A stretch of DNA of 64,000 nt from Octopus vulgaris (Eukaryota). Of the stretch, positions 36,901 to 64,000 are shown one piece after another. The DNA is taken from positions 122,264,001-122,328,000 of the forward strand of contig OX597815.1 in assembly GCA_951406725.2 (NCBI GenBank), read 5' to 3'. The position numbers are program-made. Numbering within the stretch: the first letter of the stretch is position 1; every line of letters starts with the position of its first letter.

Positions 36901-38345
36901 AGAATAGAAATGAATATATACCTATATTTTTCTGAGGTTGTACAGGTTCTGCTGACTCTAAAGGCTGACTTACTCCTTCTTCATTAAATGCAGAAATTCT
37001 GAAATAATATTCGGTGTCATCTCTAAGGTCAAAAACAGTTAATTTGGTTGTTTTACCATCAGTTTCACCAACTTTGACCCATATAGGTCGGGCTCTAGCT
37101 CTCATTTCAATGATATAGCCAAGCAATGGAGACCCTCCATCTGATCTTGGTGGATTCCAAACAACATCACAGAACCTATCTGATACATTATCATATACCA
37201 CTGGTCCCAGTGGAGATGTTGGTTTACCTAAAATATCAAGAAAAATTATTTTTAAAAATTATAAAAAAATAATGAGAAAATTGTTAGAAATAAATGTACA
37301 AAACTGAATATTATAGAATGTTTCAAGTAGTGAAAACCTACCAAATGGACTTTTGATCTTTGTTGTTAAATCAGTAACAAGAGGATCACTGTTACCAACT
37401 CTATTGACAGCAGTTACTCGGAAATCATATTCAGTGTCTTCAGTCAAGTCTTTAATATTATAAGATGTTATATTTGCATGTACACGATCAATTTGACTCC
37501 AGAATGATCGAATAGACTCTTTCTTTTCAAGTATATAACCTGTGAGAGGTGAGCCACCATCATCTTCAGGAGCATTCCAGCTGATACTGGCAGAGTTTTT
37601 GAGGACATCAAATACTTTGATAGGACCTCTTGGTATGGATGGAATAGCTGAATAAATAAATATGAGAAAGAAACCATAAATATTAATACATAGTTAATAA
37701 AATATATAAACAAGAACAGAAAGATGGAAAAACTATTTTGTACTATACTACATTTCTGATATTGTTTTGCTTAAAAACATATATCTACATGAAAAACATA
37801 CTTTAATGAATTTTAAGCTTATAAAATTATGAACTACTTAATATATGCAATTTTAATTATGTTCTTGAAATTAAATAAGAAAAAACATACCTAAAGGTCG
37901 TTTTGGTGTAACTGCATGATCAGCATCACATGGCTTGCTTAAGCCTACTGAATTTTCAGCACAGACAGAGAAGTAGTAATTAACATTTTCTCGCAAAGCT
38001 TTTACAGTGTATGTATGTTCATATGCACTGACTGAAGTTATTTTCTCTCGGTCTTCATAAATATCAAAACGTTTATAAATTACATAGTCGGTAATCTTAG
38101 ATCCACCATCTGAAATAGGTGGTCTCCATTCTAAAACTGCAAAATCTGGTCCTATTTTGGTAGCTCTTAAGTGAATAGGAGAGTCTGGGATATCTGAAAT
38201 TGAAAAGAAGTAATAGTGAATTAACATGAAAAATATACATTTATTTATGCCTAATAAACTCTTTATCTACTTCTTTCTTTCTCTTGCTCCAAATGCCCAC
38301 AAATATATACATATATTTATACAAGCACATATATTCATACATGTA

Positions 38346-38401
<56 letters not shown>

Positions 38402-61600: not shown

Positions 61601-64000
61601 TAGTTATTTATACCTTTGATACTAAAATGATTTATAAACATAAAATTGTTTCTTTATACAGGAACATATTCTAATCAAAAAATATTTTTTTACATGAATA
61701 GATATTTATGAAATATCAATTAGCTTACTTGACTCCTTTTTGGGAACAACAGGTCCAGGCATTTCTGCCAGTTTACCGCTGCCCTTCTTATTTTCAGCAC
61801 ATACAGCAAAGTAATATTCTTGGCCTTCTTCCAGATCTGTCACCTTACAATTTCTTTCATTTCCATCAACAGTCATGAGTTTTTCCCAATCAGATTTCTT
61901 ATCTTTCTTCATTTTGATGGAATACTTGAGGATTTTAGAGCCACCATCATCATGTGGTGTTCTCCATTCTAAGGTAACATGTGATTTTCCTAATTTACTA
62001 TATCTAAAGTCATAAGGTACACCAGGCACATCTGAAATAAACAGAAGGCAAATCAAAATCCAAACTAAATACAGATTTTTAAAAATATTATGCTAAACTA
62101 TGAGATAAACTATAAAACATATAAAAAACATGAAATATAATTAAAATTATTTCTTTTTACATTCAATGATAAACAATAAAATATGTGTTGACTAGTTAAT
62201 AACAAAATTACTTTAGAAGAAAATGTATAACTTACTTATGTCTCTAGTTGGTGTTGCAGACTCTGTTGTCTCCAAAGGTTGACTTTCTCCCTCTTCATTA
62301 ACAGCAATCACACGGAAGTAATATTCAGTTCCCTCAACTAAACCAAGAACTCTGGCAACAGTACATTTGGGATCAATTTCTTCTGCTTTGAGCCACGACA
62401 CACGTGCAGCAGATCTTACTTCAACAATATATTTAGTGAGAGGAGTGCCTCCATCACTGTCAGGAGCTTTCCATTCAAGATCAACATAGTCATAAGAGAC
62501 TTTGGTAATATCAAGTGGCCCTTTAGGACGAGATGGTACACCTAGAGAACACAGAGAAACAATAAAATGTACCACTCCATACATTTATTTGCAAATGTAT
62601 AAACATAAAATTTCAAATACAAAATCAGTTCAAATAAGGAAGATAAGAAATTTAACTTTTTCTCAAAACCAAGTGAAATTTATTAAGCTTATAAAATTTA
62701 TAAAGATTATAAGGTAATCACAAAAACTTTTATGAAGTAAAACGTTACATAATTAGTAACTAATACTACATCAAAAAAATTTTAAGACATTGATTATATG
62801 AGACAATTCAAATATATAACTTACTGAATGAGCTCTTTGCCATTGTTGATGCATCGGTCTCTAATGGATCACTAAGACCAATTTTATTAATTGCAGTAAC
62901 TCTGAACTCATATTCACAGTTCTGTCTCAGATCCTCAACACGGTGGTTGGTCACTGATGGTGCTACCTTAGCCACATTGCTCCAGTATTGTCTATTAGCC
63001 TCTTTCTTTTCAATAATGTAACCAGTGAGAGGACTACCTCCATCATCTTCTGGAGCTTTCCAGGAAATGGAAATAGATGTTTTCTCAATATCATAGGTTT
63101 TCAGAGGACCAATTGGTTTTGATGGTTTTTCTAAAAATACAAAACAGTACACAATGATAGAATAATGTCTCTCAAGTTATACTTACATCAAATACCAAGA
63201 AAGTTTAAGATCTATCAACAAAAATTACACAGTGATATTGAATGTCTTACCAAGAGGTCGCATTGGTGTAACTGCATATTCTGAATTACAGTAAGGACTT
63301 AGACCAACTTTGTTCTCAGCTTGAATACAGAAGTAGTAGGACAGATTCTGTTTCAAGTCTCTCAAATGACAACTGTGTTCAAAAGCTGATACAGTTTTCA
63401 CTTTAGTCTTCACATCAGATGATGTACCACCCATTTCAGATATGATGTAATTGGTGATTTTAGAACCTCCATCTGAATGTGGTTTCTTCCATTCCAAGAT
63501 TGCAAAGTCAGGACCAACCTGTGTAGCTCTGAAGTAAATTGGTGCACTTGGTGGCTCTGAAAAACATTTCCAATAAAATATTTTTAATACACAAAATTCT
63601 CTGATAATCTTTAATATTCTACTGTATGAAGGATAAATACAAAGCTTCTGAAAATCTGAAGACAAAATTCTAATGAGAAATAGATTATTACTCACCAATC
63701 TTCCTCACTGGTTTTGTGACATCAGTAGATTCAAGTGGTTTGCTCTGTCCTTCAGCATTAACAGCAAAGACACGGAAATGGTAACTTGTGTCTTCTGTAA
63801 GATTTGGTACTGTAAATGTGGTAGTTTTCTCATTAACAGTGCCTGCTTTAGTCCAGAAGGTTCTGGAATCTATTCTGTGTTCAATAATGTATCCAGTTAT
63901 TGGTGTACCACCATCATTGGCAGATGGTTTCCAGCTCAAGTCAGCAGAATTATTGGTGACATTTGTGATCTCCAATGGACCAACTGGTGCAGATGGCACA

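Follow-up and report, generated by a model that had tools for sequence, protein, structure and literature searches.

Nebulin, a thin-filament ruler, consists of short α-helical modules of ~35 residues arranged in sevens, and its super-repeat has been proposed to match the ~38 nm filament period; in twitchin and projectin the basic unit is Fn-Fn-Ig, composed of fibronectin type III (FN3) and immunoglobulin (Ig) domains. In excerpts of PMC10665226, the FN3 domains of the titin A-band are described as three sequence types whose order, writing a dash for an Ig domain, is -AC-ABC (D-zone) or -AC-ABC-ABC (C-zone), with the FN3-FN3 linkers (NPF, DPI) belonging to the C-terminal end of the exon and an 11-domain unit that spans ~43 nm. 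Excerpts of PMC10665186 give a 3-4-4 pattern for titin on a filament in which three myosin crowns make up the asymmetric unit and the rise is 43 nm, and projectin is described in excerpts of PMC9886278 as carrying Ig-Fn super-repeats of considerable length as well as a kinase. Here we analyze a 64,000-nt stretch of the Octopus vulgaris genome (the window; GCA_951406725.2, contig OX597815.1, positions 122,264,001 to 122,328,000), the whole of which is filled by a minus-strand gene segment of 58 FN3 exons. Thirty of these exons form a nine-domain super-repeat that is built entirely from FN3 domains.

FN3 hallmarks were present on a ladder of open reading frames (ORFs) of ~100–160 codons in stop-to-stop lists, and a hidden Markov model seeded with 12 ORFs from the window itself retrieved 58 FN3 ORFs, on the minus strand only. 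Exon borders were set by reading frame and splice consensus and then rechecked; exons 22 and 41 each offered two candidate border sites, and the choice was made by length. The analysis was done exon by exon, that is, on 58 separate translations across the window. Each exon encodes one FN3 domain plus its C-terminal linker, and every translation matches Pfam fn3 (PF00041) above the gathering score (best E 1.8e-19). All 57 complete exons have a length that is a multiple of three (306 nt in 31 cases, 303 in 17, 300 in six, 297 in two and 294 in one), and all exons are in phase 1-1, with two bases of a split codon at the start and one at the end. Exon 1 is truncated at the window edge (64000), and the gene exceeds the window at both ends. 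Introns measure 114–2003 bp, except for intron 57 (12,622 bp), and the sequence is AT-rich (GC ~32%). The window is part of one intact spliced animal gene with at least 58 tandem FN3 domains of sarcomeric sequence type. There is a negligible chance that it represents a pseudogene or an assembly artefact: the 58 exons are open, GT..AG borders flank 57/57 introns, no stop codon arises at any of the 57 exon junctions, the ratio of nonsynonymous to synonymous divergence (dN/dS) is below 1 and the window contains no N. A collapsed or duplicated assembly is also excluded because the copies of the repeat differ by 18–55%.

Over exons 1–30 (37342–64000), mean amino acid identity peaked at lag 9 with 59.5% (21 pairs) and was 56.8% for lag 18 (12 pairs) and 55.3% for lag 27 (three pairs), with values of 44.2–45.5% at lags 3, 6, 12, 15, 21 and 24 and 31.2–35.0% at the remaining lags. 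For each of the 30 domains, the lag of the best match is divisible by nine. Average identity was 58.3% for pairs at the same position (n = 36), 44.6% for pairs that share a class but not a position (n = 99) and 33.7% for the remaining pairs (n = 300); the first two groups differ with p = 4.8e-15 and the last two with p = 4.0e-31 (Mann–Whitney), and none of 20000 within-class shuffles of the domains reached the observed lag-9 mean. In a tree of exons 1–36, eight of the nine position groups are each set apart by a branch (Shimodaira–Hasegawa-like approximate likelihood ratio test, SH-aLRT, 65–100), and the position 1 group needs two changes. A preliminary description of the locus had proposed a nine-domain super-repeat, to be checked by an all-against-all identity comparison or a tree; the peak at lag 9, well above lags 3 and 6 (44–45%), and the recovery of eight position groups bear this out.

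That description overlooked a second level of order, the 3 × 3 nesting of the domains. Periods of three and nine are both present in the lag profile, which indicates that a three-domain unit is nested inside the nine-domain block: the block consists of three A-B-C units. The tree of exons 1–36 recovers the three classes with support of 91, 91 and 80. Class A domains start with VPSxPxGPL and are encoded by 306 nt, class B domains start with PGxPxxLR, lack the GP and are encoded by 303 nt, and class C domains end with AKSPF and are encoded by 306 nt. Most of the private signatures listed earlier for individual positions were recovered exactly: RQYW, SYDYVDLEW, DKK..W, NLYE, YRT..R.TW, G..FVE, YDT and the terminal GL each occur in precisely the three expected exons out of 58. 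Others held in part. PMR.L is found in exons 7, 16 and 25 but also in exon 2; the strict form of IYFRAT..G.DF is found only in exons 2 and 20, the A being replaced by S in exon 11 and the start of the motif being IHLRAT in exon 29; ADHAV.P is found in exons 11, 20 and 29 but not in exon 2. The exons of the super-repeat are as follows.

63696..64000, minus strand: exon 1, FN3, position 1, class A; cut by the window edge; best match exon 19 (67.3%)
63251..63556, minus strand: exon 2, FN3, position 2, class B; best match exon 11 (54%)
62825..63130, minus strand: exon 3, FN3, position 3, class C; RQYW
62236..62541, minus strand: exon 4, FN3, position 4, class A; 82.2% identical to exon 13; SYDYVDLEW
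61729..62031, minus strand: exon 5, FN3, position 5, class B; DKK..W
60402..60707, minus strand: exon 6, FN3, position 6, class C; NLYE
59198..59503, minus strand: exon 7, FN3, position 7, class A; YRT..R.TW and PMR.L
58765..59067, minus strand: exon 8, FN3, position 8, class B; G..FVE, YDT and terminal GL
58103..58408, minus strand: exon 9, FN3, position 9, class C; splice borders, Pfam and PDB search
56639..56944, minus strand: exon 10, position 1; best match at a multiple of nine
55371..55673, minus strand: exon 11, position 2; best match at a multiple of nine, motif
54445..54750, minus strand: exon 12, position 3; best match at a multiple of nine, motif
53737..54042, minus strand: exon 13, position 4; domain folded with AlphaFold2
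51431..51733, minus strand: exon 14, position 5; best match at a multiple of nine, motif
49939..50244, minus strand: exon 15, position 6; best match at a multiple of nine, motif
49452..49757, minus strand: exon 16, position 7; best match at a multiple of nine, motif
48968..49270, minus strand: exon 17, position 8; best match at a multiple of nine, motif
47879..48181, minus strand: exon 18, position 9; best match at a multiple of nine
47352..47657, minus strand: exon 19, position 1; best match at a multiple of nine
46923..47225, minus strand: exon 20, position 2; best match at a multiple of nine, motif
46078..46383, minus strand: exon 21, position 3; best match at a multiple of nine, motif
45094..45399, minus strand: exon 22, position 4; acceptor ambiguous (45399 or 45390), motif
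44322..44624, minus strand: exon 23, position 5; best match at a multiple of nine, motif
43390..43695, minus strand: exon 24, position 6; best match at a multiple of nine, motif
42698..43003, minus strand: exon 25, position 7; best match at a multiple of nine, motif
41062..41364, minus strand: exon 26, position 8; best match at a multiple of nine, motif
40449..40754, minus strand: exon 27, position 9; best match at a multiple of nine
38999..39304, minus strand: exon 28, position 1 of a fourth copy; 53–59% identical to exons 1, 10 and 19
37891..38193, minus strand: exon 29, position 2 of the fourth copy; 50–63% identical to exons 2, 11 and 20
37342..37647, minus strand: exon 30, position 3 of the fourth copy, last of the sharp super-repeat; 53–57% identical to exons 3, 12 and 21

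Properties beyond residue identity also follow position. One copy of the block measures 914–916 codons, the linker ends are position-specific across copies, and net charge per domain, with a lag-9 autocorrelation of 0.51, is −6, −6 and −6 at position 4 and +3, +3 and +4 at position 5. Position 4, the most acidic, is 69–82% identical between copies, compared with 45–67% at the other positions (48–57% at position 8). Taken as whole blocks, the copies are about equally distant from one another, with means of 60.7, 58.1 and 57.8% (hand average of the per-position identities). The high conservation of position 4 (62236–62541, 53737–54042 and 45094–45399) could be caused by stronger constraint, a younger duplication or gene conversion.

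The sharp repeat stops abruptly at the boundary between exons 30 and 31 (36922–37647). Exons 28–30 are 50–63% identical to their partners, as near as any copy, and exons 31–36 are 27–50% identical to theirs. The stretch given earlier for the super-repeat starts at 37342, which coincides with the end of exon 30. The 3.3 copies counted previously hold as three copies plus positions 1–3 of a fourth, but positions 4–9 of that fourth copy are much diverged (27–50%). The repeat zone is equally readable as three full blocks, exons 4–12, 13–21 and 22–30 (2745, 2742 and 2745 nt), preceded by the tail of a block that continues past the window edge. The abrupt stop suggests that the duplicated unit was phased in this second way, with the domains downstream belonging to an older layer. 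Within the latter, the tree still places exon 32 with position 5 and exon 34 with position 7, and 23 of the 28 domains in exons 31–58 keep the A-B-C register. A second super-repeat within exons 31–58 was considered and rejected, as identities of 38.7, 37.7 and 37.4% at lags 6, 12 and 9, compared with ~32–33% off-period, reveal only a weak three-domain period.

32668..37227, minus strand: exons 31–36, six FN3 domains in the register of positions 4–9; 27–50% identical to their partners
1647..32023, minus strand: exons 37–58, 22 FN3 domains with the A-B-C period only; no lag-9 peak

The introns and synonymous sites bear on the age of the block. Among introns 1–30, 14 of 435 pairs have a blastn high-scoring segment pair (HSP) in common; at lags of 9, 18 and 27 this applies to one of 36 pairs (introns 10 and 28), and the shared segment is a dispersed repeat that occurs also in introns 13, 25, 27 and 51. 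The earlier statement that matching introns lack similarity is upheld by these counts. Nei–Gojobori counts on the 36 same-position exon pairs gave a mean proportion of synonymous differences (pS) of 0.638, close to the 0.665–0.675 of unrelated domain pairs, so that synonymous sites are near saturation. The mean proportion of nonsynonymous differences (pN) is 0.269 for same-position pairs, 0.38 for same-class pairs and 0.48 for pairs of different class, and dN/dS for same-position pairs ranges from 0.13 to 0.48. With no relation between matching introns and with nearly saturated synonymous sites, the duplication that gave rise to the block is old, and every copy has since been under purifying selection; this agrees with the old duplication under selection that the preliminary description had proposed. 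The youngest-looking pair, exons 4 and 13, has the lowest dS (0.79) and differs at 18 of 101 residues, in agreement with an earlier count of about 18 of 102.

The type of FN3 domain was assessed by PDB searches with exons 7, 8 and 9 singly and with profiles of classes A, B and C. In all of them the top sequences were the titin C-zone chains 8g4l_bm and 8q6t_I from cardiac thick-filament structures, followed by titin FN3 crystal structures, cardiac MyBP-C and myomesin; twitchin and extracellular FN3 proteins (receptor phosphatases, contactins, Dscam, fibronectin) scored lower. Exon 7, for example, matched the single titin domain 8bw6_A with 82.9 bits and receptor phosphatase F with 51.3 bits, twitchin FN3 in 3uto gave 47–61 bits, and titin matches of individual domains reached 85 bits. 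The AlphaFold2 model of exon 13 is a seven-strand FN3 sandwich (predicted local distance difference test, pLDDT, 96.7), for which Foldseek returned template modelling (TM) scores of 0.90–0.93 to myomesin My4 and titin Fn3-90 at 31–39% identity; Foldseek identities to sarcomeric-type FN3 domains lie at 31–40%. Judged by sequence, these comparisons show that the octopus FN3 domains are of the sarcomeric type; orthology to titin is not implied.

FN3 domains are also common outside cells, the ends of the gene lie beyond the window, and 49 of the 58 domains have a sub-threshold match to the DSCAM C-terminal FN3 model, all of which would fit a non-muscle or extracellular poly-FN3 protein, whether tenascin-, usherin- or receptor-like or another cytoskeletal scaffold. 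We consider such a protein decidedly unlikely, since sarcomeric FN3 domains lead extracellular ones by ~30 bits per domain and the 58 domains contain 66 cysteines (hand total), often an odd number per domain. Nor was another domain type found on the gene strand. Of 81 other minus-strand ORFs of at least 60 aa, 11 microsatellite ORFs were dropped and 70 scanned against Pfam; the only matches were exon 1, which served as a positive control, and one reverse transcriptase. Ig domains are absent from the 58 domains, and 0/69 of the other ORFs (70 minus the exon 1 control) matched an Ig family. Hidden Ig or kinase exons in introns were likewise not found in these 70 ORFs or in a separate set (0/10).

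The closest architectural counterpart is the titin A-band. Both proteins have three FN3 classes in a fixed order, a repeat of repeats with three sub-units per super-repeat, a linker at the C-terminal end of the exon and, according to excerpts of PMC10665226 and PMC10665186, copy-to-copy conservation that is position-specific. In contrast to titin, with three Ig domains per 11 and blocks of seven or 11 domains (3-4 or 3-4-4) with a 43 nm period, the octopus gene has no Ig domain in 58 consecutive domains, a block of nine (3-3-3) with an estimated span of ~36–40 nm and every domain on its own exon. The mixed Ig/FN3 super-repeats by which membership of the titin group is recognized, of seven (Ig-Fn2-Ig-Fn3) or 11 domains (Ig-Fn2-Ig-Fn3-Ig-Fn3), are missing (0/58 Ig), and the period is nine nested on three. 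The serine/threonine kinase domain that titin, twitchin and projectin carry near the C-terminus and an Ig-rich I-band part have no counterpart within the window. Class C ends with AKSPF and one titin FN3 domain with AKNPF, which is the only lead at the level of motifs.

We also considered whether the octopus unit is simply the titin A-B-C tandem without its Ig domains. Against the eight FN3 domains of 8g4l_bm, which in order are super-repeat positions 2, 3, 5, 6, 7, 9, 10 and 11, profile A scored 72.3, 68.9, 73.3, 48.3, 68.0, 84.8, 53.5 and 49.9 bits, profile B 73.1, 56.1, 55.4, 53.3, 56.4, 54.9, 54.0 and 56.2 bits, and profile C 68.3, 68.1, 74.7, 66.9, 62.3, 82.2, 65.5 and 52.4 bits. Profiles A and C thus peak on the same titin domain (84.8 and 82.2), and profile B favors the first FN3 domain in the C-zone chains (73.1) and the last domain in the A84-A86 crystal chain. 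Double-centring by hand did not help, and this derivation was rejected for want of a consistent class map, the SPF/NPF-like linker being its only lead.

Other muscle proteins are further removed. Twitchin and projectin share the three-domain basic period, the titin-type FN3 domains and a long thick-filament-associated chain, but in the octopus unit all three members are FN3, with no Fn-Fn-Ig arrangement, and a second level of nine is set on top. Myomesin and MyBP-C provide some of the best sequence and fold matches, but they are short proteins of ~10–13 mixed Ig/FN3 domains without a super-repeat. Nebulin resembles the octopus protein only in the way it works, through a super-repeat proposed to match a filament period; it has no sequence or fold relation to FN3, and the octopus domains are β-sandwiches of ~101 residues, not helical modules. 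Excerpts of PMC12198301 make no mention of an all-FN3 titin relative, and full-text literature searches, whose scope excluded subscription journals and supplements, returned no description of an all-FN3 or nine-domain super-repeat.

Myosin crowns are spaced by 14.3–14.5 nm, and the thin-filament period is ~36–38.5 nm. Block length was scaled from titin, for which one 11-domain chain of 1084 residues (8g4l_bm) corresponds to 43 nm in excerpts of PMC10665186 and PMC10665226. At this on-filament density a block of ~915 residues would span ~36 nm. The earlier estimate of 36–40 nm, from nine domains at 4.0–4.4 nm each, is fair arithmetic on an assumed spacing. As a block falls short of 43 nm and three domains fall short of one 14.3 nm crown, the protein would have either a register unlike that of vertebrate titin or a straighter chain. 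The preliminary description had suggested a ruler in register with the thin filament (~36–38.5 nm) instead of the 43 nm myosin repeat. The block length, by either estimate, would suit this proposal, but the numerical match depends on the assumed domain spacing and is numerology so far. We regard the proposal as very unlikely, since the nearest solved relatives (titin, MyBP-C, myomesin) are thick-filament-bound FN3 domains and nebulin, the known thin-filament ruler, has helical modules and not FN3; nor did the analysis, which included no search aimed at one, find an actin-binding feature. A wider version, in which an Ig-free, all-FN3 relative of the titin A-band is a true template and its block sets a period of ~36–40 nm (perhaps that of the thin filament, or one half of the period of a thick filament with a paramyosin core), is unlikely as well.

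The reading that we favor, tentatively and at somewhat less than even confidence, is an intracellular, filament-associated muscle scaffold that resembles the titin A-band and presents nine surfaces per block, most likely on the thick filament. A mechanism is proposed where the chain is stretched along a periodic polymer and would offer nine non-equivalent surfaces once per block, roughly every 36–40 nm, in three sub-units. The likeliest partner would be the myosin (or myosin–paramyosin) thick filament, which is favored because the nearest solved relatives are titin domains lying on myosin tails. A ruler function is plausible by analogy; the protein may either set filament length or merely decorate the filament.

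Several points weigh against such a scaffold. The proximity to titin is partly a sampling effect, because the PDB is rich in titin FN3 domains and poor in invertebrate ones, and classes A, B and C do not map one-to-one onto the titin types A, B and C. A block of ~36 nm would be neither 43 nm nor a multiple of the 14.3–14.5 nm crown spacing and would have no simple thick-filament register. The parts of the gene beyond the window could encode a kinase or Ig domains, and equally a signal peptide or a membrane anchor. Finally, the private residues show no concentration in loops or linkers (the 50 strand columns contain 28 private cells, the 51 non-strand columns 18), and shared ancestry with purifying selection at the level of the fold would also keep position-specific signatures.

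The last point leads to the alternative that the block repeat reflects history only, as a poly-FN3 spacer, tether or elastic chain that was lengthened nine exons at a time and has no periodic partner. Values of dN/dS of 0.13–0.48 are ordinary for folded domains, the even spread of private residues over strands and loops is what this account expects, the three copies are about equally distant, as after one duplication burst, and the block signal fades downstream into a plain three-domain period. A history of this kind is possible but doubtful, since block length is constant within two codons in ~915, linker ends and per-domain charge are position-specific, and constraint is unequal, from 69–82% identity at position 4 to 48–57% at position 8; in titin the same pattern reflects filament binding, according to excerpts of PMC10665186.

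Some features of the introns deserve separate mention. The dispersed repeat noted above occurs 11 times across the window, in either orientation and always within introns (sites include 42100–42420, 19735–19970, 53217–53429, 38512–38662 and 14295–14431), with a length of ~150–240 bp and 75–85% identity between copies, and it accounts for all strong intron-to-intron matches. It has no tRNA-like part (no ARAGORN prediction) and no Rfam match; the window as a whole gave no Rfam match at the gathering score and no tRNA. In intron 11, a long AT-rich trinucleotide run (54751–55018) translates to poly-Ile when the frame of exon 12 is followed, and it lengthens this ORF to 202 codons, which is a non-coding artefact of the ORF list. 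The frame of exon 49 extends into intron 49 (21957–23004) to give 259 codons (22553–23332); by eye, this extension and an ORF at 21957–22214 look like a reverse-transcriptase or long interspersed nuclear element (LINE) remnant, although Pfam RVT_1 did not match the ORF at 21960–22214.

Intron 57 (1953–14574) is the only very long intron. It holds two non-long-terminal-repeat (non-LTR) reverse-transcriptase ORFs, at 3673–5145 on the minus strand and 6106–8238 on the plus strand (Pfam RVT_1, E 6.6e-38 and 4.4e-31), and microsatellite arrays of TA/CA type at ~2790–3650, 4920–6110 and 8490–8770. Since exon 58 is in the A-B-C register, either no FN3 exon has been lost across it or the number lost is a multiple of three. 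The intron also contains a 216-codon open frame on the minus strand (11793–12440) with a GC content of 39%, compared with ~32% around it, and a composition of 13% S, 12.5% Q, 11% Y, 8% R and 8% H. This S/Q/Y-rich frame matched no Pfam family and gave no usable Atlas hit. A candidate exon within it, with a good phase-1 acceptor at 12397 and a donor at 11831 that fits five of six consensus positions, would add 567 nt in frame, perhaps encoding a disordered 'unique sequence' like those of titin.

11831..12397, minus strand: candidate non-FN3 cassette exon of 567 nt in intron 57; candidate splice sites, phase 1-1 possible

The novelty of this locus is limited to its architecture, an Ig-free, nine-domain FN3 super-repeat that is without description in the literature searched. 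The super-repeats of titin are the textbook protein ruler, but only one architecture has been studied, Ig plus FN3 in blocks of seven or 11 domains with a 43 nm period. A chain with three FN3 classes and a repeat of repeats that lacks Ig domains and counts in nines is a natural comparison, which asks which design features of titin are needed for templating and whether block length tracks the filament period of the host muscle. Block deletions and insertions should be easy to engineer because every domain is a separate in-phase exon; engineering of C-zone blocks has been done before in titin, as cited in excerpts of PMC10665226. If the template reading is true, the octopus gene would represent a second 'ruler register' of animal muscle that was built independently, and the poly-FN3 triple tandem, rather than the Ig-FN3 mix, would be the core templating module.

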